Source of the DNA: Bdellovibrionales bacterium
GTDB taxonomy: Bacteria; Bdellovibrionota; Bdellovibrionia; Bdellovibrionales; JAUICD01
Reading direction: 5' to 3'
DNA: 64,000 bases
Assembly: GCA_965262715.1 (NCBI GenBank)
Contig: OZ253553.1
Location: 1,065,169 to 1,129,168, forward strand
Shown here one piece after another: positions 5,616 through 39,334 of this stretch; position 1 is the first letter of the stretch, and each line of letters opens with the position of its first letter. Below the pieces are notes generated by a model, which was given only the letters and a program-made list of their open reading frames with translations, had not been told where the DNA came from and did no database searches. The translations under genes and the position numbers were made by a program.

Positions 5616-6722
5616 ATGGTATTTTTAGGTGGGCCCAGGCAAGTAGGTAAGACAACACTAGCTCAGATGATTTTAAAAAAGTTTCCTTATCGACGATCAA
5701 ACAAAGGGCTTTATCTCAACTGGGATTTTGATGAAGACAGGTATAATATTTTAAAAAAAAGATGGGACGAGGATCACCAGCTTATAGTTTTTGATGAACT
5801 TCATAAATACCCTCGCTGGAAAAATTGGATTAAGGGCTTATTTGATAAAACCTCTCATTTACATCAATTTCTTGTAACAGGTAGTGCGCGACTTGATCTT
5901 TATAAAAGGCATGGTGATTCCCTACTTGGACGTTATCATTATTGGAGACTCCATCCTATAACTTTAGATGAGCTGCCGGCAAAGATGAGTAAGGCAGAAG
6001 GATTTAAAAGATTGATGAGCGTAGGAGGCTTTCCAGAAGTTTTTTTAGATGGTGATGAACAAGAGGCCAAAAGGTGGAGAAGACAACGCTTAGATCGTAT
6101 TTTAAAGGATGATATTAGAGATCTTGAATCTGTAAAGTTAATACAAGACTTAGACTTATTTGTAGATGCTCTTAGAAGGAAGGTTGGACAATTAGTTGTT
6201 TTTTCCAACATAGCTATAGACATTCAAGTTTCTTCTAAAACCTTAAAAAATTGGCTGAATGTTTTAAACCATGTTTACTTATGTTTCTCTATTTGGCCTT
6301 ATACGAGGAATCTTCCAAGAGCTATACAAAAACCACCTAAAGTGTATTTTTTTGATAATGCAGATGTAATATGTGCAGATGATGAAGTCTCTCGATTTGA
6401 AAATGTAGTGGCAACCCACTTATTAAAAAAAATACACTATTTAGAAGACGCTAAAGGATCTAGTTGGGATTTAAGGTATGTCAGAGACAAAGAATTTCGT
6501 GAAGTGGATTTTGTTTTACTTAAAGATAGAAAAGTTTTTGCTCTTATAGAAGTCAAACTATCAGATAGTGATATTTCTAAATCTCTTAAATATTATGCTG
6601 AAAAGTTAAAGCCTAAACATGCTATTCAAATTGTTGCCAATCTTAAACAGGAATACAAAGTAGGTAAATGCCGAGTTTTAACTATTCAAACAGCCCTACA
6701 AACTTTATTTAAAAATGTATAA
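5616..6722 (+). CDS. AAA+ ATPase of the AAA_14/DUF4143 type
   Basis: 368-aa ORF; Walker A GGPRQVGKTT, Walker B-like LIVFDELHK. The frame stays open upstream, and GGAGG at 5557-5561 precedes in-frame ATT 5565 / ATA 5568, so the true start is probably non-ATG around 5565. Confidence 0.8.
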   Translation: MVFLGGPRQVGKTTLAQMILKKFPYRRSNKGLYLNWDFDEDRYNILKKRWDEDHQLIVFDELHKYPRWKNWIKGLFDKTSHLHQFLVTGSARLDLYKRHGDSLLGRYHYWRLHPITLDELPAKMSKAEGFKRLMSVGGFPEVFLDGDEQEAKRWRRQRLDRILKDDIRDLESVKLIQDLDLFVDALRRKVGQLVVFSNIAIDIQVSSKTLKNWLNVLNHVYLCFSIWPYTRNLPRAIQKPPKVYFFDNADVICADDEVSRFENVVATHLLKKIHYLEDAKGSSWDLRYVRDKEFREVDFVLLKDRKVFALIEVKLSDSDISKSLKYYAEKLKPKHAIQIVANLKQEYKVGKCRVLTIQTALQTLFKNV

Positions 6723-10228: not shown

Positions 10229-11635
10229 GAGGATGTCCCACGTTTCGGTGAAATTGAAGTTAAGCAGAGCTTGATGTTTTGCTACGCCTGTTTCTATTGT
10301 TAGTCAATAGGTTTAAATTTTCTTCCATTGTATTTAAATCTTTATACCCTTTAATAGCTCTAAACTTTTTTTCAGCTTCAACTAAAGAAGCAGCAGCCCA
10401 TCTCATAACCTGATCTGGAGAACTTCTCCAGTTCTTAACCCTGCTGACTTTATCTCTTACAATAGAAAAGGCAGACTCAATAGGATTTGTAGAAGATAAG
10501 GTTCTCCTTAGCAGTGGAGATACCTTCAACTTGATAACTGTCAGTGTCTCCTCCTTTGCTTCCTTAAGTGAAGCCAATGCTGCATAATTAATCCTGCTTA
10601 ACCAACTCAGTAACTTATTGTATTCTCTCTGAGAAGAATCATAATCATTAAAACCATGCACCATCTTCCAGCGACGCTTAAACTCTAAATGACGTTCCTG
10701 AGGTAAATAACTTAAAACATTCCTCTCCTTGTGGTGAATACAGCGTTGAACTACTGCTCTCTTACCAAAAACTCTATTAATAGCTGTCCTTAAAGATCTG
10801 CTACCATCAATTACAAAAAGGTAAGGCTTATCTGAACGAAGACCTCTTGCTATTAAACTCTCTAATAAGTCCTTGCAAACTTCCCAGTTCTCTGTATGAC
10901 CCTCTCTAAGACCCAGAACTAACTTCTTACCTTCAACTGTGATGCCAAGAGCTACAACCACTGTCCTTGAACCAAAAACAACACCATCAATCATAATTGA
11001 TGAAAACTTATCCTTACTCAGATCACGACCATTTAAAGATTCAAGAAACTTCCTAGATGACTTATTAAAGACTCTGCTCACTGTACTCTTAGAAAGACCC
11101 GTCCCTCCTACAATATCATCAAGAAGTTCATTGTAATTACGACAAGATACCCCTCTCATAGCATGACTCAAAACTTTATCACAAAGTATGTCATACTTTT
11201 GAAGCACTGAATAAGACCGCAGCTTAATATCAGAACCTCCCTTCTCCTTCACCCTAGGCTTCCTCACCTGAAGCCTTTGACCTTGTGCAAGAACACTCCC
11301 AGAATCACTACCCGCTCTGTAATATCTTGTATCACGACCACGAACATGACGCTTACCACACAGTGATAATAACTCATCCTCAAAGAAATCATGGATCATA
11401 TTAATAACCATTGATCTCATGCGATGCTCTAGGATCTCTCGAATCTCATTTGACTCAGATGATAAAACTTGAATTGAATAACCATTCTTACTACTCTTCA
11501 TAATAGCTCCTTTCTGTTATCTATTTCCTGATAAAATAAAAACAGTAAACAACGGCTAGACCACTTAGGATAGCCGGGAGCTCTACTTTCTTCTAATTCC
11601 TATAAGAAAATTTCACCGATCTATGGGACAACCTC
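10229..11635 (-). mobile_element. IS256-family insertion sequence with 8-bp target duplication
   Basis: Imperfect terminal inverted repeats: GAGGATGTCCCACGTTTCGGTGAAATT at the left end, reverse complement GAGGTTGTCCCATAGATCGGTGAAATT at the right end. Flanking direct repeat TAAAGAGG at 10221-10228 and 11636-11643. Confidence 0.85.
10260..11501 (-). CDS. IS256-family (Mutator-type) transposase
   Basis: 413-aa ORF. Motifs MIDGV..., VVALGITVEGKK..LG, FVIDGSRSLRTAINRVFGKRAVVQRCIHHKERNV are typical of IS256 transposases. Visibly higher GC than the surroundings. Confidence 0.9.
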   Translation of the reverse strand: MKSSKNGYSIQVLSSESNEIREILEHRMRSMVINMIHDFFEDELLSLCGKRHVRGRDTRYYRAGSDSGSVLAQGQRLQVRKPRVKEKGGSDIKLRSYSVLQKYDILCDKVLSHAMRGVSCRNYNELLDDIVGGTGLSKSTVSRVFNKSSRKFLESLNGRDLSKDKFSSIMIDGVVFGSRTVVVALGITVEGKKLVLGLREGHTENWEVCKDLLESLIARGLRSDKPYLFVIDGSRSLRTAINRVFGKRAVVQRCIHHKERNVLSYLPQERHLEFKRRWKMVHGFNDYDSSQREYNKLLSWLSRINYAALASLKEAKEETLTVIKLKVSPLLRRTLSSTNPIESAFSIVRDKVSRVKNWRSSPDQVMRWAAASLVEAEKKFRAIKGYKDLNTMEENLNLLTNNRNRRSKTSSSA

Positions 11636-14887: not shown

Positions 14888-15670
14888 TTATTTGGAGGAT
14901 CCGTTCCATAATTTACTCACTGCTGAGATTCCCATTGTTGTTAATTCTCCTGTTTTCCATTTAGCTTCAAATTCATTAGGTGATAAGTAACCTAATGAAG
15001 AATGTCGCCTTTTTTTATTATACATACCTTCGATAAACTTTGGAATACTTCTTAACACATCTTCAAAAGTTTTATATTCACACAGATGAACCTCTTCTCG
15101 TTTTAAAGAGCTAAAGAAAGATTCAACAAATGCATTATCCCAACAATTGGCTTTTCTCGACATACTGATCTTAAAGCCTTTTTCTTTAAGCTTGTAGGTA
15201 TAATCTTTACTGGTGTATTGAACACCTTGATCACTATGATGAATACATCCTTTAGTATCTGATCTCTGATCTAAACTCATCTCTAAAGCTCCTAAACAAA
15301 GATCTGTGTTGATCTCTCTAGAAATAGCCCACCCTACAATCTTCCTTGAAAAAATATCTAAAATCACTGCTAAAAAAACAAAACCATCTTGAATCCTAAT
15401 GTATGTGATATCTGTTACCCAAAGCTGGTTGGGTCTATTCACTTCAATGCCAAAAGTTAAATTCGGATAAACTCGATTTGAATGTTTAGAATCCGTGGTT
15501 GAAACCTTAAAACCTTTGTAAATCAAAGCCTTTAAACCGTATTTCCGCATAATGCGAGCAATCCTCTTGTGGTTGGCTTTAATACTCTTCTCTTGCTCAA
15601 GTTCCAATTGAATACGACGTATTCCATACATCGGGTATTTACACTGTATCCTCTCAATCTGCTCTTTCAA
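14888..15670 (-). CDS. IS3-family transposase OrfB (DDE/rve integrase core), expressed as an OrfAB -1 frameshift fusion
   Basis: Motifs LWVTDITYI, HHSDQGVQYTS, NCWDNAFVESFF. The orfB frame is open upstream to the A7 tract at 15841 (…CKALGLPLSSYYYKRK…). Confidence 0.9.
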   Translation of the reverse strand: MKEQIERIQCKYPMYGIRRIQLELEQEKSIKANHKRIARIMRKYGLKALIYKGFKVSTTDSKHSNRVYPNLTFGIEVNRPNQLWVTDITYIRIQDGFVFLAVILDIFSRKIVGWAISREINTDLCLGALEMSLDQRSDTKGCIHHSDQGVQYTSKDYTYKLKEKGFKISMSRKANCWDNAFVESFFSSLKREEVHLCEYKTFEDVLRSIPKFIEGMYNKKRRHSSLGYLSPNEFEAKWKTGELTTMGISAVSKLWNGSSK

Positions 15671-15741
15671 ATCAAAATCCCTTTGCTCTCGCTCTTGCTG
15701 TGAAATCTTTCTCTTGTAATAGTAGCTACTTAAAGGTAACC

Positions 15742-16092
15742 CTAACGCTTTACACGTTTTTGAAATTGATCCAAATTCTTTCCAGTGATTACCGACGATC
15801 CTACGCTTTTCCTCTGTTGAAGCTCCTTTTTGGCTTTTTTTAAAAACTCGTTTTCTAAGCTGAGCTGTCCTACCTTTGCCTGAAGAGCATATATTTGTCT
15901 CTCTAGAGATCTCTCCCTTGATGAAGGGTTTCCCAAAGGTGTCCCTTGTTGATACTTCTTAAACCACTCTAAGACTGTTTGGCGATGAAGTTGATGCTCC
16001 CGGCAAATCTCTAACAAAGATCTGCCTTCATGCATCGATTTACAAATAGCTTCCTTAAATTCAACATTAAATCGTCTTCTTACTTTGCCCAT
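15742..16092 (-). CDS. IS3-family transposase OrfA (HTH)
   Basis: 116-aa ORF MGKVRRRFNVEFKEAICK...LEICREHQLHRQTVLEWFKKY with a leucine-zipper-like C-terminus; contains the slippery A AAA AAA at 15835-15841. Confidence 0.9.
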   Translation of the reverse strand: MGKVRRRFNVEFKEAICKSMHEGRSLLEICREHQLHRQTVLEWFKKYQQGTPLGNPSSRERSLERQIYALQAKVGQLSLENEFLKKAKKELQQRKSVGSSVITGKNLDQFQKRVKR

Positions 16093-16266: not shown

Positions 16267-18792
16267 TTAAAGAGAAATTTTTTGTAATAAACGGATTAAT
16301 ATATTTTTTTGTTGATTCTTTTCTTTTTCAACCAAATCATTTTCAATAACTACACAAGACTTTGCGATTTTATCTTGATTTAAAGATTCAAGTTCTTGAA
16401 GATTGTATTCTTTAATTTTCTGATGGGTTGCAAATAAAAATCCATACCTATGAATAGTAGATAAGGCAAAACGTTTATGATGAAAGTTCCATTTATAAAA
16501 ATGGCACTTTAAAATAAGTTGATTAGAAGGTGAAAGTAATGGCATGTAAACAAAATCAGAATTTTCAAATGTTTTATTAAAACGATGAATAGTTTCACTA
16601 GAAAAAGTAAATCCTATATGAAACCAATGATAAGAACCTTTTATTGGTTTAAGATTAAGTAAAATAGGTAATGGATTAATAAAATCCAATAATAAACCTT
16701 TATCAATCTTATCTAATTTATTGCGAAATACAAGAAGAGCATCATTTAAATAATCTATATAATACACATTGTTTCTATACATTTTGTAATTGAGATCTTT
16801 ATCATTATAAACAATACCTTCAAAGAGACCTTTATACTTATTAGAATGTACTCTTAACTCATTAAGAATTTGATCCATACTTTCTTTGTTTTCTATAATA
16901 AATGGATAGTTCCTATCTCTCACTTTGATACTATGAATTTTATATTTTTGATGTTTAGGTTGATCAGTCATTAATTGATCCTCTTTATAAAATTTAAAAA
17001 TAGCCATTTTTGCTAAAGAAGAAATATTAATAGTAAATAATATTGCTAAAATTAAATAACAAACTCTTTTTATATTTATCATATTTGTATTTATTATTAA
17101 ATAAAAAAGAAAAACAATTAGAAAATATAATAAAGGTTTTTCAGCATCTCCTATTATACAAATTAATATTGACAGCCCTATACAAAAATCAAATAATAAC
17201 TGTCTTATTAGTAAAAAGTTGTTATTTGTTAAAAATGACTTTAATTGATGAAAATAGTAGGAGAGGTTTGAAAGTTTTACTTTATTTGCTAATTTGTTTA
17301 AAAGTGGTTTGGGCTCCTCAATATAATGTTTGAAAAAATCTAAAAGCCTTGTCTTGTTTAGTGACTTTTTTAAAAATAATAAAATAAAAACTCTCACTAG
17401 AAAAAATATAAATGGATAGGCAAAAATATAATTTAAGCCAAAGTAAGCATTTGCTAAAAAAGATGTATTAATAACAAATAATACTGTTAAAATCCAATAA
17501 AACCCTTTCTCAAAATTTATATTTTTAATATTTATTATTAAGTATAAAAAAATAGCTATCAGAAAATATAATAAAGACTTCTCCTTATCATTTACCATGC
17601 CAATTGATAAAGAAACTCCTACACACAAATCAAATAAAAACCATTTAGTAAGTATTGACTTATTCTCTGCTAAAAATATTTTTGATTTATAAAAATAATA
17701 TTTTAAAAATTCTATTGGATTTTTTTCTTTAGGTATCTTTTTAAGCAATTCAGTACATACTCTCATTAAAAAACATACAAATAGATAGATAAAAAAGTAA
17801 TTTAACTCAAGATAAACCTCTTTTTTGGATAAGATAACATGATAAATATCTTGTAGATATCCTATGTATGAATATTGACTTAAAATAAATGTAGAGAGTG
17901 TTAAAAACAAAAATAACGAAATTGAAAAGACTATATATTTAAACCACAATTTAAAAGGTAAAATAAGAAATATTGAAAAAATCAATAAAGACGATGCGAT
18001 AAAAAAATTGAGCTTATAGTTTAAAAGAATATAAGCACAAATAACTTGTATAATTAAAAAAAATATAAACCTATTTTTTTCAATCTGTACAACATTATCA
18101 ATATTTTTTACAAAAAATTTTCTCCAACAAAATAAATGGACAATTTGTAAAAGGAATAACCCCCACAAATGTTTGTTATAACTGCCATTCCACCAATATC
18201 GTGCTTCGATATTGAACATATCGGACATTATCTTTACCTGAAAGATGATAGACAAAATAATAAGCAATAAGGCTATAGGTACAGCTTTTACTATATTGAA
18301 TCTCATCAAATAAAATAAACCAATAATAATCAATGAAAAAAGAATAGATGAAAGCATGGTCATATCAAGAAGGTGAAAAGTATCTGGAAAAGACTCCATA
18401 ATAAGCAGCGAAGTATAATTAAGGCCACCATAGACAAAACCAAAAGGCGTGTGAAAATCTTGATGTAATCTCAAACCATGCTTTATAACATAAGCACTTA
18501 ATTGGGGTATCCATGTATCTGGTAGAAATCCTATCAATAAATAATGTTCACCTAAAAAAATAATTGATAATATGATAGAAAATAAAAGAATAAAACCAAA
18601 ATAAATAGCTATTTGATTTGTTTTTGGAGAAGTTAAGAAATCTTTTAAAAAAATTGAGATCTTTTTAACAATAGAAAATTTGTTAAAGAGATAAATATAA
18701 AATAACAATATAAAAAGACTAAAAATAATTTTGTGCTCAATAATTATTGAGCCTAAAAAAATAAATAGCGATTGAAACATATCTACTTCCAA
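16267..18792 (-). CDS. very large polytopic membrane protein with internal duplication and soluble C-terminal domain, function unknown
   Basis: 841-aa ORF, extremely hydrophobic over the first 600 aa or so; repeat pair around residues 362-451 and 510-599. Confidence 0.65.
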   Translation of the reverse strand: MEVDMFQSLFIFLGSIIIEHKIIFSLFILLFYIYLFNKFSIVKKISIFLKDFLTSPKTNQIAIYFGFILLFSIILSIIFLGEHYLLIGFLPDTWIPQLSAYVIKHGLRLHQDFHTPFGFVYGGLNYTSLLIMESFPDTFHLLDMTMLSSILFSLIIIGLFYLMRFNIVKAVPIALLLIILSIIFQVKIMSDMFNIEARYWWNGSYNKHLWGLFLLQIVHLFCWRKFFVKNIDNVVQIEKNRFIFFLIIQVICAYILLNYKLNFFIASSLLIFSIFLILPFKLWFKYIVFSISLFLFLTLSTFILSQYSYIGYLQDIYHVILSKKEVYLELNYFFIYLFVCFLMRVCTELLKKIPKEKNPIEFLKYYFYKSKIFLAENKSILTKWFLFDLCVGVSLSIGMVNDKEKSLLYFLIAIFLYLIINIKNINFEKGFYWILTVLFVINTSFLANAYFGLNYIFAYPFIFFLVRVFILLFLKKSLNKTRLLDFFKHYIEEPKPLLNKLANKVKLSNLSYYFHQLKSFLTNNNFLLIRQLLFDFCIGLSILICIIGDAEKPLLYFLIVFLFYLIINTNMINIKRVCYLILAILFTINISSLAKMAIFKFYKEDQLMTDQPKHQKYKIHSIKVRDRNYPFIIENKESMDQILNELRVHSNKYKGLFEGIVYNDKDLNYKMYRNNVYYIDYLNDALLVFRNKLDKIDKGLLLDFINPLPILLNLKPIKGSYHWFHIGFTFSSETIHRFNKTFENSDFVYMPLLSPSNQLILKCHFYKWNFHHKRFALSTIHRYGFLFATHQKIKEYNLQELESLNQDKIAKSCVVIENDLVEKEKNQQKNILIRLLQKISL

Positions 18793-24755: not shown

Positions 24756-24806
24756 TCATGAAGGAGCAATATATTTGATTCTCTCTTTTAGTGCCTGTTC
24801 ATTCAT
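24756..24806 (-). pseudogene. 16-codon stub of an AbiEii/AbiGii-type nucleotidyltransferase toxin gene
   Basis: An ATGA start/stop overlap with abiEi is followed by MNEQALKERIKYIAPS*. This looks like the usual AbiEii N-terminus; the rest of the gene is absent and replaced by repeat copy B. Confidence 0.5.
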
Positions 24807-25393
24807 GTTGTTGCCGTTAGTACATAGGGGGTAATGTTGAACTTTCGTTTTTTTGCATAGACTTGTAGTTTTCTAATATCTAGTTTGTTTCCACTAGAAC
24901 CTCTAAGCCCCGCCTTCAATGCCTTAATAGCCACCTCAATGCTTAGATAACGAAAAGCATCAACAATTGTCCTTTCAGGATCAAAGATCGATATCTTCTC
25001 ACTTCCTATTTTTATTTCTGTTCTACCAAGCTCAATATCGCGAGTGCGTAGAAACTTTACCTTTGAACGCTTCGGAGCAGTCGTTGCATGAGGTATGGCA
25101 ATCCAATGTACACGAGGAATCTCATCTGTCATATCGTAAATATCCAAAGCAGAAATAAGACAAACTACTCCGTTAGAAACACTCTTTGCTGTTATAAACA
25201 AATCCTCCCATTTAAAATCAACATCCGGTTCAATAGATGGGTTTCTATACACTCCTCTCCCAATTTTTTCGATGAGTCCCCGCTCTATGTAGTAACTAAG
25301 TAGTGCTGGATGTATTCCTATAGCTCGTGCTTCTGATGCACGAAAAAGAGGCTTTTTCAAAAGTTTTTTAAATCTTCTATCTGTGTGTCTCAT
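24803..25393 (-). CDS. AbiEi-family type IV antitoxin/transcriptional regulator
   Basis: 196-aa ORF; LFRASEARAIGIHPALLSYYIERGLIEKIGRGVYR (wHTH), then GVVCLISALDIYDMTDEIP and SIFDPERTIVDAFRY, typical of AbiEi. Confidence 0.75.
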   Translation of the reverse strand: MRHTDRRFKKLLKKPLFRASEARAIGIHPALLSYYIERGLIEKIGRGVYRNPSIEPDVDFKWEDLFITAKSVSNGVVCLISALDIYDMTDEIPRVHWIAIPHATTAPKRSKVKFLRTRDIELGRTEIKIGSEKISIFDPERTIVDAFRYLSIEVAIKALKAGLRGSSGNKLDIRKLQVYAKKRKFNITPYVLTATT

Positions 25394-25404
25394 ATCCTTA
25401 GTTT

Positions 25405-25443
25405 AATAATAAAACCCAGTAAAGTCAACTGGGTTTTATTATT
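25405..25443. promoter_or_regulatory. perfect 15-bp inverted repeat (9-nt spacer) immediately upstream of the abiEi RBS; candidate operator or hairpin
   Basis: AATAATAAAACCCAG-TAAAGTCAA-CTGGGTTTTATTATT; ends 12 bp from the abiEi start codon. Confidence 0.4.
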
Positions 25444-25671
25444 CTTATAAAAGAATAAGCATCTTTTATGGAAAAACCCATAAAAAAGACGTTTTAGAGG
25501 TTTTTTTACAGTTTTTTATCTTCAAGCTTTCGATTTATAATACCCAGTCATAATATTGTAGGATGTAGTATATTAAGACATTAGAAGCCATCTCAAAAAT
25601 GCTACTAGAGATAACAATTTTAGAAAAAATACCAGTTTTGCATTACACAAAACATCCCATGAGATGGCTTC

Positions 25672-25769
25672 TACTCAAAATGAATAGATTTTCTAGGTAC
25701 TGATCCGATGGTTTTTTACCATCAGATCAGTGCCAGAAAGCACGCCAGCGGCGTGGTTCATTTTGAGGA
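25672..25769 (+). ncRNA. solo copy (E5) of the co-varying multi-helix element found in the tRNA-Arg array
   Basis: CTCAAAATGAA..TTTCTAGGTACTGATC-CGATGGTTTTTTACCATCA-GATCAGTGCCAGAAAG-CACGCCAGCGGCGTG-GTTCATTTTGAG; same helix layout as 38487..38598 with different helix sequences. Confidence 0.45.
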
Positions 25770-25969
25770 AGACAACCCTTTTATACAAGAAATTAGAAGC
25801 AATAGGTACAAACGTTTATAGACGAAGATGACCATTGATATACATTGGTAGTTAGATAAAGTTATGAACCACTAGCAATGTTTATCAATTTTTTATTTTT
25901 GAGATCGGTTCTAGTTATGGTTTGATTTTTTAGGATGCATTTTATTATAATAATTTTTAGGAAAACTTA

Positions 25970-29745: not shown

Positions 29746-30711
29746 TTAACTGTTCAAGATATAGGAACAAAAGGTACCTTCCCTTTCAAAATATAGTGAG
29801 TTTCCACTTAGAATTGAAGTTTTTCTAGGATGACTTCTAAGTAATTTAATCATTCTAAAATACATCTCTGAATTTAAACTTGATACTTCTGCACCATGAT
29901 TTAATAGTATCCGAACAATACTTGCAGATTCTCTTACAATAGCCCAATAGAGTGAAGCATGCCCATAATCAGTCGTCGCATATATATCAGCTTTATTTTC
30001 TAAAAGTATGCAAACGGTATTTTCATTCCCACTACTAACAGCAAAATGGAGAGGAGTAATTCTAAAATTATTAATCTCATTTACAACTTCGTTTTCTAAA
30101 AATATGCGAAGTACATCCTTATCGTTACCAAAAGCAGCCCAAATATTCGTAGATCCTCTCATAATACTCCAATAGAGTGAAGCATACCCATAACCAGTCG
30201 TCGCATCTACATCAGCACCATTTTCTAAAAATATACGAGCTGCACCTTCATTCCCGCTGCTTGCAGCAAGATGAAGAGGAGTAACTCCAAAATCATTAAC
30301 CACATCCACATCAGCACCATTTTCTAAGAGGATACGGGCCATACTTTCATTTGGATTCATGGCAGTGAAATGGAGTGGAGTAAATCCAGAAGTATTAACT
30401 GGATTCATATTAGCCCCATTTTCTAAAAGTATGCGAGCTAAACCTTCACCCCAATTCATAGCAGTCAACTCAAGAGGAGTAAATCCAAAAGAATTAACCG
30501 CATTCACATTAGCTCCATCTTCTATAGAATCACGAGCTAGATATTTATTTCCAACACTAACAGCTAAAAAGAGAGAGCGATCTGATGGAGTTAGAGAATC
30601 CTGATCCTGAGCTTTGGCTTGAGCCTGAACTGGAATAGTTAATAACCAGGCTAGAAGCAAAGAAGCTATATTCTTTTGTATTTGCTTCATAAAAACATTC
30701 CTTCTAAACAC
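29746..30711 (-). CDS. secreted ankyrin-repeat protein (about 7 repeats)
   Basis: Signal-like LLLAWLLTIPVQAQA; repeated G.TPLH.A...GNE..ARI.LENGADV units. Confidence 0.85.
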   Translation of the reverse strand: MFRRNVFMKQIQKNIASLLLAWLLTIPVQAQAKAQDQDSLTPSDRSLFLAVSVGNKYLARDSIEDGANVNAVNSFGFTPLELTAMNWGEGLARILLENGANMNPVNTSGFTPLHFTAMNPNESMARILLENGADVDVVNDFGVTPLHLAASSGNEGAARIFLENGADVDATTGYGYASLYWSIMRGSTNIWAAFGNDKDVLRIFLENEVVNEINNFRITPLHFAVSSGNENTVCILLENKADIYATTDYGHASLYWAIVRESASIVRILLNHGAEVSSLNSEMYFRMIKLLRSHPRKTSILSGNSLYFEREGTFCSYILNS

Positions 30712-36502: not shown

Positions 36503-38305
36503 ATGCAGGTTCAAAATATTCGTAATTTTTCTATTATTGCCCATATTGATCATGGCAAGTCAACTCTTGCAGATGCACTTTTGAACTTTACAAAATCCAT
36601 TTCTGACAGGGATAAAAAAAGCCAATTTTTAGATAACATGGATTTAGAAAGGGAACGTGGAATCACCATCAAGGCTCAAGCAGTATGCCTGAAGTACAAA
36701 TCTCTCCACAGTGGAAAAGAGTACCAATTCAACCTGATAGATACACCAGGTCACGTGGACTTTTCTTACGAAGTATCCCGATCTCTAGCAGCTTGTGAAG
36801 GGGCACTGCTGGTTGTAGATGCCGCGCAAGGTGTTGAAGCGCAAACCTTAGCCACTGTCTATCAAGCGTTAGACAACGACTTAGCACTTATCCCTATTTT
36901 AAATAAAATTGACCTACCTTCTGCCAACCCTGATGATGTGATCTTCCAAATTGAAAATACTATTGGCATCGATGCTACCGATGCTATTTTCGCCAGTGCA
37001 AAAAACAACACAGGGATTGATAAAATATTAGAAGCTATTGTCGCAAAAATCCCTGCTCCTACTGGTAGTAAAAAAGAACCCTTAAAAGCATTAGTTTTTG
37101 ATTCATGGTTCGACTCTTATCAAGGAGTGGTCGTTTTATGCCGCATTTTTGATGGATACCTTAAAGTAGGAGACAAAATCCGTTTTATGGCCTCATCAGT
37201 TGATTATGAAGTTTTAAAGTTAGGGGTTAATGCCCCCTTTCCTGTTGAAAGACAAATGCTATCTGTTGGTGAAGTGGGTTTTGTCATTTGCGGCATTAAA
37301 AATATCAGAGATGTTCGCGTTGGTGAAACCCTCACCTCAGCTAAAAATCCAACTCCTAAGCCTCTCTCTGGTTTTAAGAAAGTTAAACCTATGATCTTTT
37401 CTGGTATTTTTCCTATTGATTCCACTCATTACCAAAAGTTAAGAGATAGCTTGGAAAAACTATGCCTTAATGATTCTTCTTTGAGCTTTGAACCAGAAAG
37501 CTCTACTGCATTAGGACTAGGCTTTCGCTGTGGCTTTCTAGGTTTACTACATCTAGAAATCGTACAAGAACGTCTTGAAAGAGAATTTAATTTAGAATTG
37601 ATCACCACAGCACCAAGTGTTGTCTACCATGTTTACAAAACAAATGGTCAAATGATACGTCTAGAGAAACCTTCAGATCTTCCAGAAAGAAGTCATATTG
37701 ATCGTATAAAAGAGCCTTTTTTAAAAATCACTATTCATACACCTTCAGATTATTTAGGTGGTATTTTAAAGCTTTGTGAAGAACGTAGAGGCAAACAAGA
37801 AAAGCTTGAATTTATCACTCAAGGTAAAGTTATTGTTGAGTATAAACTGCCCATGAATGAAATGGTCTTAGACTTCTATGATAAACTTAAATCTATTTCT
37901 AAAGGATATGCCTCCATGGATTATGAAGTGATAGGATTTGAGGATTCCGATTTGGTCCGATTAGATATTTTATTAAATGGAGACCCAGTAGATGCCTTAT
38001 CTTTGATCATCCATAAAAATAACTCCTACCATCGTGGACGAGCTCTTACAAAAAAAATGAAGGAACTTATCCCCAAACAGCAATTTCAAGTTGCTATTCA
38101 AGCTGCTATTGGAGCTAAAGTGATTGCTAGGGAAACTATCAGTGCTATGAGAAAAGATGTGACTGCAAAATGCTATGGAGGAGATATAACTAGAAAGCGA
38201 AAACTTTTAGAAAAACAAAAAGCAGGTAAAAAGCGCATGAAACAAATTGGAAGTGTGGAAGTTCCACAATCTGCTTTTTTAGCTATACTCAAAATAGACT
38301 CTTAA
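36503..38305 (+). CDS. lepA: elongation factor 4
   Basis: 600-aa ORF; [29 protein letters not shown], and the LepA-specific C-terminal domain (...[22 protein letters not shown]). Confidence 0.97.
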
Positions 38306-38366: not shown

Positions 38367-38443
<77 letters not shown>

Positions 38444-38604
38444 TCTTCTTGTTTCCCTAACATGTTATAAAAAAACGAAAAGATCCTCCTTACTAAAATG
38501 CATCAGGCTTTCTAGGCTTTGCCCTATTTGCCAAACGGCGTAAGCCAGTTTGGGGGCAATGCCAGAAAGTCACCAGAGGTGAGATGCATTTTAGTGAAAT
38601 AAGC

Positions 38605-38670
<66 letters not shown>

Positions 38671-38831
38671 TCTTCTTGTTTCCCTAACATGTTATAAAAA
38701 AACGAAAAGATCCTCCTTACTAAAATGCATCAGGCTTTCTAGGCTTTGCCCTATTTGCCAAACGGCGTAAGCCAGTTTGGGGGCAATGCCAGAAAGTCAC
38801 CAGAGGTGAGATGCATTTTAGTGAAATAAGC

Positions 38832-38896
38832 CAATTGGATAGAGCATCTGCCTTCTAAGCAGGAGGTTCCAGGTTCAAGTCCTGGTCGAACCGCCA
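38832..38896 (+). pseudogene. partial tRNA-Arg copy (D-loop to CCA)
   Basis: Same extent as 38605..38670 but with the GTTCCAGG T-stem and two substitutions (GAGCATCTGCC, GCAGGAGG). Confidence 0.85.
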
Positions 38897-39063
38897 TCTA
38901 TGAGAAAAAAATTTCCCTAACATGTTATAAAAAAACGAAAAGATCCTCCTTACTCAAAATAAACAGATTTTCTAGGCAATGACCTATTTGCTGAGGGCAT
39001 TAGCCGTCAGGGTCAGTGCCAGAAAACAGCCAGAGGCTGGTTTATTTTGAGTGAAATACAATC

Positions 39064-39096
39064 GGCTTGCAGGTTCAAGTCCTGGTCGAACCGCCA
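39064..39096 (+). pseudogene. partial tRNA-Arg copy (T-arm + 3' acceptor only), T-stem variant
   Basis: GGCTTGCAGGTTCAAGTCCTGGTCGAACCGCCA. Confidence 0.8.
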
Positions 39097-39334
39097 TCTA
39101 TGTTAGAAAAAAATTTCCCTAACATGTTATAAAAAAACGAGAGGTATCTCCTTACTCAAAATAAACGGATTTTCTAGGTAATGACCTAATTGCTGACGGT
39201 AAAAGCCGTCAGGGTCATTACCAGAAAGTGGCCAGAGGCCATCTCAAAAGTCTTAAATTGTTATAAATAACTGTGCTACAAGAGACTTCGGTAACACTTT
39301 CTTCAAGGCAAGAGAAGATATAATTCTATTTTTG

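Follow-up and report, generated by a model that had tools for sequence, protein, structure and literature searches.

A structured interspersed repeat family, tandem behind tRNA-Arg and dispersed along the chromosome, in a low-GC, ankyrin-rich clade of Bdellovibrionales

The array behind tRNA-Arg

The DNA analysed here is a 64,000-nt stretch of contig OZ253553.1 (hereafter, the window), from the genome of a Bdellovibrionales bacterium, and the subject is an element of about 105 nt that occurs in it five times (E1 to E5). An original prediction, made from the letters of the sequence, had proposed this element as a candidate structured RNA or DNA whose helices co-vary between copies. The element is a copy of an undescribed family of structured interspersed repeats, found in a clade of low-GC Bdellovibrionales rich in ankyrin-repeat genes. 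E1 to E4 constitute a tandem array, with periods of 227, 233 and 202 nt, located directly 3' of a tRNA-Arg(TCT) gene and downstream of lepA (Table 1), the units being parted by 3' fragments of the same tRNA-Arg, of 66, 65 and 27 nt. This arrangement formed no part of the original prediction.

Table 1. Copies of the repeat and accompanying features in the window
Feature	Position	Strand	Basis and remarks
E5, solitary full three-way junction	25670..25773	+	Covariance model, 78.1 bits; fold z = -10
lepA	36503-38305		Upstream of tRNA-Arg(TCT); Pfam LepA domains
tRNA-Arg(TCT), intact, head of the array	38367..38443	+	ARAGORN; Rfam tRNA model, 68.7 bits
Unit 1 spacer and leader (TCTTCTTG TTTCCCTAACATGTTATAAAAAAACGAAAAGATCCTCCT)	38444..38488	+	Leader consensus conserved family-wide
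E1, full three-way junction, P1 ACTAAAATGCATC/GATGCATTTTAGT	38489..38600	+	Covariance model, 96.2 bits; folds
tRNA-Arg 3' fragment, tRNA positions 13-77	38605..38670	+	blastn-short against the intact tRNA, 97% identity; partial Rfam tRNA match, 22.6 bits
Unit 2 spacer and leader	38671..38715	+	227-nt unit 99% identical to unit 1
E2, full copy, core identical to E1	38716..38827	+	Covariance model, 96.2 bits
tRNA-Arg 3' fragment, tRNA positions 13-77	38832..38896	+	blastn-short; Rfam tRNA, 35 bits, model positions 9-63
Unit 3 spacer and leader (TCTATGAGAAAAAAA TTTCCCTAACATG...)	38897..38948	+	
E3, full copy; P1, P3 and P4 sequences differ	38949..39057	+	Covariance model, 110.4 bits; fold
Short tRNA-Arg 3' fragment, tRNA positions 51-77	39070..39096	+	blastn-short, 27/27 identical
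Unit 4 spacer and leader	39097..39149	+	
E4, truncated: P1 5' strand, P2, P3 and P4 kept, P1 3' strand gone	39150..39241	+	Fold

The copies in the window were located by a pattern describing the arms of helix P2, which gave exactly five matches against a chance expectation of 0.02, and then by a covariance model built from 20 diverse seeds, which recovered E1 to E5 only, all on the + strand; the five copies thus stand where they had been placed. Each one folds as a three-way junction of P1, P2/P3 and P4, and all five folds present the bulged A and the AGA or AGC loop of P4 that had been described for them, with fold z values from -6 to -10, whether RNA or DNA energy parameters are used and on either strand. 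Since its core does not differ from that of E1, E2 is a recent tandem duplicate. E4, lacking one strand of P1, is truncated, its covariance-model match (39168-39241) covers model positions 18-91 only, and its terminus reads ...GAGGCCA/TCTCAAAAG (here and below, a slash within a junction sequence marks the boundary or breakpoint).

E1 to E4 are each preceded by a conserved leader of ~45 nt (TTTCCCTAACATGTTATAAAAAAACGA..GATCCTCCT), and its 21-nt core, TAACATGTTATAAAAAAACGA, occurs four times against 0.01 expected. E5 has no such leader, and an 11-nt inverted repeat, GAAGCCATCTC...GAGATGGCTTC (25583-25671), stands there instead. Some smaller features accompany the copies. The sequence TAAATTGTTATAAATAA, at 39254-39270, after the truncated E4, matches the leader core at 82% and may be a decayed fifth unit. 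A 12-mer, GCCATCTCAAAA, is found both before E5 (at 25588) and at the truncated end of E4 (at 39238), and resembles the 3' end of the tRNA with its flank (GCCA/TCT). Finally, an AT-rich 16-bp hairpin (25405-25443), situated just past one end of an open reading frame (ORF) with an AbiEi domain (24803-25393, - strand), gives weak model matches on both strands; the weak match at 25403-25445 was rejected as a family member, being an ordinary AT-rich hairpin.

Size, distribution and covariation of the family

The repeat unit consists of an optional leader of 40-60 nt followed by the three-way junction of ~105 nt. The leader is formed by a palindrome, TTCCTTAACAT-N-TGTTAA, and then a GGATCC-centred segment; RNAalifold found no consensus fold for it, and individual leaders give weak hairpins only, with hints of covariation. 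In the junction, P1 has 13-14 bp and P4 has 5-6 bp with an AGA loop, while P2 and P3 make one long hairpin that contains a bulged A and an asymmetric internal loop and that ends, in most copies, in a tip loop of the G..A type.

A pattern scan taking one genome per species returned at least 86 loci. Among those listed, 79 are on OZ241865.1, a 2.57-Mb chromosome (a metagenome-assembled genome, MAG, of a Bdellovibrionales bacterium), another Bdellovibrionales MAG accounts for one, and the other six matched by chance, in taxa that are not related. The 79 loci amount to 632 kb, about a quarter of the chromosome, and in them a sequence-only nhmmer profile detects at least 319 full and at least 221 partial non-overlapping copies, which occupy 46 kb, 7.3% of the sequence examined, counting the junction core only. 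The covariance model gives at least 374 matches in the fetched loci. Both strands are used (75 strict-pattern matches on +, 66 on -), only 2 of 251 copies fall within ORFs of at least 150 aa, almost all being intergenic, and no orientation preference relative to the neighbouring genes was found among the copies tested in the OZ241865.1 loci; tmk, gapA and thiI are among the genes with copies on both sides. Orientation was also considered in relation to the direction of replication; the sampled loci of this chromosome, from which its origin could not be located, present regional strand biases of ~2:1 (+61/-31 at 0.2-1.0 Mb, +17/-37 at 1.0-2.0 Mb). Six related genomes contain the family, and the covariance-model search of relatives, which the original prediction had recommended, did find members. 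Two pattern scans of JGI metagenomes gave 0 matches and then 19 that the covariance model rejected as chance, and scans of IMG/VR, plasmid and phage sequences did not find the family.

Using RNAalifold on the 20 seeds, 41 pairs were predicted, 26 of them with compensated changes. In the best 150 covariance-model matches, 99.6% of the cells are paired and 25 of the 41 pairs change on both sides, with a covariation score of 0.456 against 0.176 for column shuffles, none of 500 shuffles reaching the observed value; if the partner columns are slid by 1-3 positions, pairing falls to 31-46%. Taking into account that this alignment was fitted to the structure, pairs were recounted in an alignment made from sequence only with a hidden Markov model, comprising 286 distinct full copies. 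In it, 97.6% of the cells are Watson-Crick or G.U, all 41 pairs are intact in 186 of the 286 copies, and about 10% of the copies have four or more broken pairs. When arms are swapped among copies, mismatches rise from an observed 0.21 to 2.77 in the outer part of P3, and from 0.07 to 1.26 in P4. The compensated helices that had been proposed from five copies hold, therefore, across hundreds of them. Several columns contain three or four pair types, which implies more than a few events; the copies, nevertheless, fall into subfamilies and are not independent.

P2 also co-varies (TTTCT/AGAAA, TTTTG/CAAAA and TTTTT/AAAAA, and in the wider family TTTTGAGG/CCCAAAA and TTTTTAGG/CCAAAAA). Hence, TTTCTAGG and CCAGAAA, which had been taken for conserved single-stranded motifs, are the two strands of this helix. 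The invariant positions are others: the bulged A, the AGA loop of P4, the 3-nt junction between P1 and P2, and the 5' side of the P3 internal loop (A/C-TTT..). The closing T.G pair of P1 is kept in 269 of the 286 copies. The commonest tip loop of P3 is of the form G..A (GAAA, GATA, GGTA, GTAA, GTGA and others), with exceptions such as TTTTT in E5 and TCTA in the related locus L092. The + strand gives the more stable fold in 154 of 164 distinct copies and, in the 286-copy alignment, excluding the closing T.G pair, there are 153 G.U pairs against 93 A.C mismatches. These asymmetries speak moderately for folding of one strand in particular, be it as RNA or as single-stranded DNA.

A multi-helix fold with conserved loops, bulge and junction nucleotides, together with strong covariation, is what would be expected from a family of structured non-coding RNA, small or cis-acting, present in many copies and acting through its fold in transcript stabilisation, termination or protein binding, following the RNA roles proposed for some REP, ERIC and BOX elements. 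The excess of G.U on one strand and the G..A tip loops present in most copies agree with it; moreover, three genomes have their first copy 8-50 nt after tRNA-Arg and in its orientation, where the two would be co-transcribed, and P4 followed by the T-rich 3' strand of P1 scores as terminator-like. However, the hundreds of copies are distributed on both strands without orientation bias to the flanking genes, the leader holds no sigma-70-like promoter and P1 is not followed by a U-tract. In addition, about 40% of the copies are fragments or chimeras, copies are nested in each other, one is inside a coding region, and in one relative (L091) the copy at the tRNA locus is inverted. Rfam 15, whose scan had been recommended, returned no match for the element at the gathering threshold or at E-values up to 10, only tRNA passing in the window. 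Ribozymes and riboswitches were likewise dropped, as the junctions show no hammerhead core by eye and Rfam was negative. Copy number, lack of orientation bias, fragments and nesting do not fit a single-function RNA gene, and the promoter and orientation data do not favour an independent non-coding RNA gene. The element is better seen as an interspersed repeat of high copy number (at least 540 copies, full or partial, within 632 kb of one relative) than as a candidate structured RNA gene, and we regard an RNA-level function as the reason for the family as quite unlikely.

With a GC content of ~32%, the host genomes abound in ankyrin-repeat genes, Rpn-like PD-(D/E)XK genes and insertion sequence (IS) elements. 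In the window, the ORFs at 603-1736, 2136-2699, 5616-6722, 14891-16092 and 29746-30711 include two DUF4143/AAA_14 ATPases, two ankyrin-repeat proteins and an IS3-family transposase (rve domain), a gene content in keeping with life in association with a host and with an abundance of mobile DNA in the genome. At many OZ241865.1 loci (for instance, L008, L038, L052 and L070), the leader often has a GC-rich tandem repeat (..CCGGGATCTGGGATCCGGCAACCCGGCATCAG..) on its 5' side, and this tandem repeat yields spurious repetitive ORFs (IPDPG... repeats).

Variation at the tRNA-Arg locus, duplication and recombination

Relatives were found through LepA homologues, in a clade of ENA assemblies from which 22-kb loci were compared. 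In L087, whose LepA is 95% identical to that of the window, tRNA-Arg is followed by three units parted by tRNA fragments of 9 and 35 nt, with two further copies beyond; in L088 (92%), by two units, the second of them decayed, with a tRNA fragment after each; and in L091 (92%), by one leaderless inverted copy 5 nt after the tRNA. Eight copies were found in L090 (LepA 83%) and two in L092 (84%), and no copy in the 22-kb loci of L089 (87%) and L093 (76%). Considering four related genomes, the tRNA-Arg locus holds 4 units in one, 3 in another and a single unit in a third, while the fourth has just the inverted copy without leader, and this difference indicates that the locus is a site of recurrent and dynamic occupation by the repeat. 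The repeats of the tRNA-Arg 3' fragment span 38367-39241 in the window, 13300-13930 in L087 and 11865-12390 in L088, and both the number and the order of units differ between these genomes.

The helices have kept pairing while diverging between species. E1-type copies in three genomes (window, L087 and L083) differ by three compensated pairs (C-G to G-C in P1, A-T to G-C in P4 and C-G to T-A in P3), and a copy of L092, in a genome with 84% LepA identity, has an entirely new P1 that is nevertheless fully paired. The locus of E5 has an ortholog in L088, where the element has lost its 5' 44 nt, and the 3' half left behind carries uncompensated changes in P4. A further observation is a 14-nt insert in the P4 loop, GGYTCGCCTCGAGA, present in one or two copies (L087:13497-13520 and 16470-16500; L088:12070-12110); its insertion point, CCA/GAGG, is that at which many 3' fragments start in OZ241865.1.

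Since each unit at this locus ends in a tRNA 3' fragment, and every unit starts with TCT and ends with GCCA, the ~227-bp units could be seen as mini integrative elements, or as the remnant of an island, integrated serially and site-specifically at tRNA-Arg, with the tRNA 3' end as attP and the junction as an attC-like structure. L087 and L088 share the arrangement, with fragments of 9, 35 and ~65 nt. In L016 (5209-5490), the 3' 31 nt of a tRNA-Ser(TGA) and 23 nt of its downstream flank are duplicated ~140 nt further on, beside a tRNA-Arg(TCT); this duplication resembles what an integration at a tRNA would leave behind, and would show that tRNA-targeted integration occurs in the lineage. Against this, tRNA fragments occur at this locus only: the other copies, in the 79 loci of OZ241865.1, have none, even where one of nine tRNA genes is nearby; no integrase gene was found among the window ORFs scanned. 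The variant T-arm (GGCTTGCAGG, which starts at 39065 in the window and is present in L087 and L088 too, or GGCTTACAGG) is shared by three genomes, which places the tRNA duplications before their split, and the recurrence of the junction between the element 3' end and CCAATTGG in several units and genomes points to the duplication of one ancestral unit instead of repeated integration. An integron attC identity was also discarded, because the core sites (RYYYAAC/GTTRRRY) are absent from the sequence, copies are found on both strands along the chromosome and the scanned ORFs contain no integrase. Serial integration is, in sum, a highly improbable origin for the array.

Presence and absence of the repeat could be compared at one site. 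The first search for empty sites was swamped by repeats in the flanks, and a stricter rerun left one usable pair, in paralogous Rpn-like genes: the site is filled at L036:1380-1900, L037:3580-4100 and L058:4016-4536, and empty at L080:1400-2100 (reverse strand). The inserted block, composed of the GC-rich repeat, leader and junction, lies just upstream of the internal Shine-Dalgarno sequence and ATG of the Rpn-like gene, which it splits into two ORFs, and is flanked by an 11-nt direct repeat. In these Rpn-like PD-(D/E)XK genes, the internal Shine-Dalgarno sequence and ATG are in frame, and 4-aa (GIEK-type) repeats are present, as in the rpn/rpnS genes of E. coli, which encode a toxin and an intragenic antitoxin (PMC10400941).

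Rearrangements among copies are abundant. L036 and L037 are identical across the element but for the whole P3 hairpin, which has been exchanged. In L003, a leader and full copy are inserted inside the P3 tip of another copy, with three more 3' fragments after it, and in L016, 5' and 3' fragments are stacked. Chimeras combine arms drawn from different subfamilies, breakpoints concentrate at the P3 tip and at CCA/GAGG in the P4 loop, and tandem arrays have periods of 147 (the minimum), 210 or 227 nt. Within one array of period 147 nt, a multiple of 3, an annotated ORF of 228 aa (L090:9159-9845) lies wholly inside the repeat and is probably a spurious gene.

These rearrangements could have been produced by a quasi-palindromic DNA that does not transpose, or no longer does, and that is spread by tandem duplication, gene conversion and microhomology-mediated template switching; its arms would be kept complementary by intrastrand templated repair and hairpin swaps, and not by functional selection. 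The common tandem arrays, the P3 hairpin swapped between otherwise identical copies, the chimeras that break at the P3 tip, the junctions at short homologies (e.g., CCTT and GCCA) and the similar numbers of 5' and 3' fragments are all consistent with this process, as is the fact that no target-site duplication (TSD), terminal inverted repeat (TIR) or transposase was found for the repeat in the DNA examined. Nevertheless, several hundred separate intergenic sites, including some beside housekeeping genes, are not readily seeded by recombination alone. Neither would arm repair conserve the unpaired nucleotides (bulged A, AGA loop and junction), which are kept across genomes with 83-95% LepA identity, nor the closing T.G pair and the G..A tip loops, kept in the same genomes; and an excess of G.U over A.C is unexpected from a process acting purely on double-strand DNA. 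Passive recombination, the main rival of the reading favoured below, appears doubtful to us as the whole explanation.

Proposed mechanism and comparison with known systems

The reading that we favour, although we hold it with as much doubt as confidence, is that of a new non-autonomous repeat that depends on its structure, is akin to REPINs or Rickettsia palindromic elements (RPEs), and would be recognised by its folded + strand. It is proposed that the repeat is selfish DNA whose spread would depend on a factor acting in trans. This factor would recognise the folded + strand, either as single-stranded DNA exposed at replication or as a transcript, and such a recognition would explain why the helices drift while pairing, junction, bulge and loops stay fixed. 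After landing, a copy would undergo local tandem duplication and then recombination exchanging whole hairpins or halves, and it may be by these two processes that the array of the window was produced behind tRNA-Arg. The data themselves show how many copies there are and where, their covariation, the presence and absence at one site, the nesting, chimeras and arrays, and the persistence of the family from species to species; we infer that recognition concerns a single strand, that the + strand is the active one, and that a mobilising enzyme exists.

Several points weigh against this proposal. The sample comprises about a quarter of one genome and seven 22-kb loci; the strand asymmetry is moderate and comes from copies that are not independent. 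The sole pair of filled and empty sites concerns a composite block and, since the 11-nt direct repeat flanking it resembles the leader, microhomology could have acted there instead of transposition. 5' and 3' fragments are about equally common, which fits recombination or deletion as well as insertion. In 159 copies, the longest flanking direct repeat has a mean of 4.49 nt, against 4.41 +/- 0.07 nt in shuffled flanks, giving no sign of a consistent TSD at the boundaries formed by the leader and the 3' end. The two ends, TTTCCTTAACAT... and ...AGTGAAAC, do not make an inverted repeat, and TIRs are missing from most copies. As for the enzyme, no HUH/Y1 motif was found in any ORF of the ~790 kb examined, and Pfam revealed no RAYT (REP-associated tyrosine transposase), IS200/IS605, IS91, reverse-transcriptase or tyrosine-recombinase domain in the copy-flanked and window ORFs.

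The search for a mobilising enzyme extended to other candidates. Neither TnpB nor an integrase appeared in the same ~790 kb, and none of the 15 ORFs scanned of the 18 with copies on both sides is HUH-like, within about 25% of one genome. A copy lies within 300 nt of 11 of 12 Rpn-like ORFs, compared with 153 of 374 other ORFs, although the Rpn-like ORFs of the window and of L083 have none at this distance. Much of the enrichment comes from paralogues that share one insertion, so the Rpn-like gene as part of the unit is only a lead. Retrotransposition, with its 5'-truncated copies, was discarded as the principal process, 5' fragments being just as frequent as 3' ones.

The rejection of a classical MITE (miniature inverted-repeat transposable element), already argued in the original prediction, is borne out by most copies having neither TIRs nor a consistent TSD; an inverted ATGTTAAGGAAA module follows roughly 40 of 213 copies only. 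No conserved short target motif could be defined at the left end of the element, which is itself imprecise. An IS256-family element of 1400 bp (Pfam Transposase_mut) is present at L007:218-1617 and L070:1322-2721, with a homologue in the window at 10263-11501 (- strand). It has its own TIRs (GAGCTTGTCC...) and 8-bp TSDs, and one copy of it has entered a three-way-junction repeat at the P3 tip (TSD GAGCCGTC), by which it is recognised as a separate element. The derivation of the repeat from it was discarded, since the ends are unrelated, and no parent IS with matching ends was identified in a comparison made with the IS256-like element.

A bolder proposal goes beyond the favoured one: the repeat might represent a new class of non-autonomous mobile element that is read through the three-way-junction fold of one strand and not through terminal repeats, moved by an enzyme new to transposition (the Rpn-like PD-(D/E)XK nucleases, expanded in these genomes, being one candidate) and inserting by preference into the hairpin loops of its own copies. 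If true, this preference would account for the nested 'Russian-doll' arrays. We consider this proposal unlikely.

Repeats of the REP (repetitive extragenic palindromic), REPIN and RPE types are common in bacteria, and the way in which they spread is understood for few of them. The present family is unusually informative in this respect, as it offers four independently varying helices, hundreds of copies per genome and several sequenced relatives, some of them complete chromosomes, and its copies constitute a natural mutational scan indicating that pairing, the bulged A, the AGA loop, the G..A tip loop and the junction nucleotides matter. An enzyme reading this fold, if identified, would extend the known modes by which mobile DNA or RNA is recognised. 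For genome annotation, the copies represent at least 7% of the examined regions, create spurious ORFs inside arrays and split genes.

Among the systems with which the repeat can be compared, the ends of IS200/IS605 elements, the PATEs (palindrome-associated transposable elements) and the omega RNA of TnpB have no TIR or TSD and depend on hairpins recognised on one strand, and the omega RNA is a structured RNA overlapping the element end. With respect to these, the DNA examined contains no tnpA or tnpB gene and gives no Rfam match to IS605-orfB or HEARO. Integron attC sites conserve structure without sequence, have extrahelical bases, fold in a strand-specific manner as single-stranded DNA and form arrays of units. 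The present repeat likewise keeps structure without sequence, a bulged base and arrays, whereas its copies are dispersed on both strands and do not form one oriented cassette array, and no intI is found. RPEs, which are structured repeats too, measure 100-150 nt and proliferate in a bacterium that is host-associated and has a reduced genome. They may enter protein-coding genes, often in frame within ORFs, and to our knowledge no transposase has been assigned to them. Compared by description only, the repeat differs from them in that its copies are almost all intergenic and its hosts belong to a different phylum.

Small bacterial repeats such as Correia, ERIC, BOX, RUP and bcr1, as well as MITEs, were reviewed by Delihas in 2011 (PMC3184786). 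The present family resembles these repeats in its size of 100-170 nt, its intergenic location, its hundreds of copies, its stable predicted folds, its modular or mosaic subfamilies and its occasional insertion into a coding region (PMC3184786). What defines MITEs, however, is the TIRs and TSDs that they inherit from a parent IS (PMC3184786), and most copies here have neither. REPs and REPINs, mobilised by RAYTs, are high-copy, extragenic and non-autonomous, appear in clusters and tandem sets, and are defined by a hairpin predicted in single-stranded DNA or mRNA, and not by TIRs and TSDs, the folded unit being better conserved than the broken 'singlets' (Bertels and Rainey, 2011; PMC3116915). 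No RAYT or HUH gene was found beside or between the copies in the DNA examined here. A REPIN is one long hairpin made of two inverted REPs of 20-40 nt with a conserved GTAG-type head (PMC3116915), whereas the element described here, without a REP-like head, is a three-way junction of four independently co-varying helices with a leader, and shares with REPINs the same high-copy, extragenic and clustered distribution.

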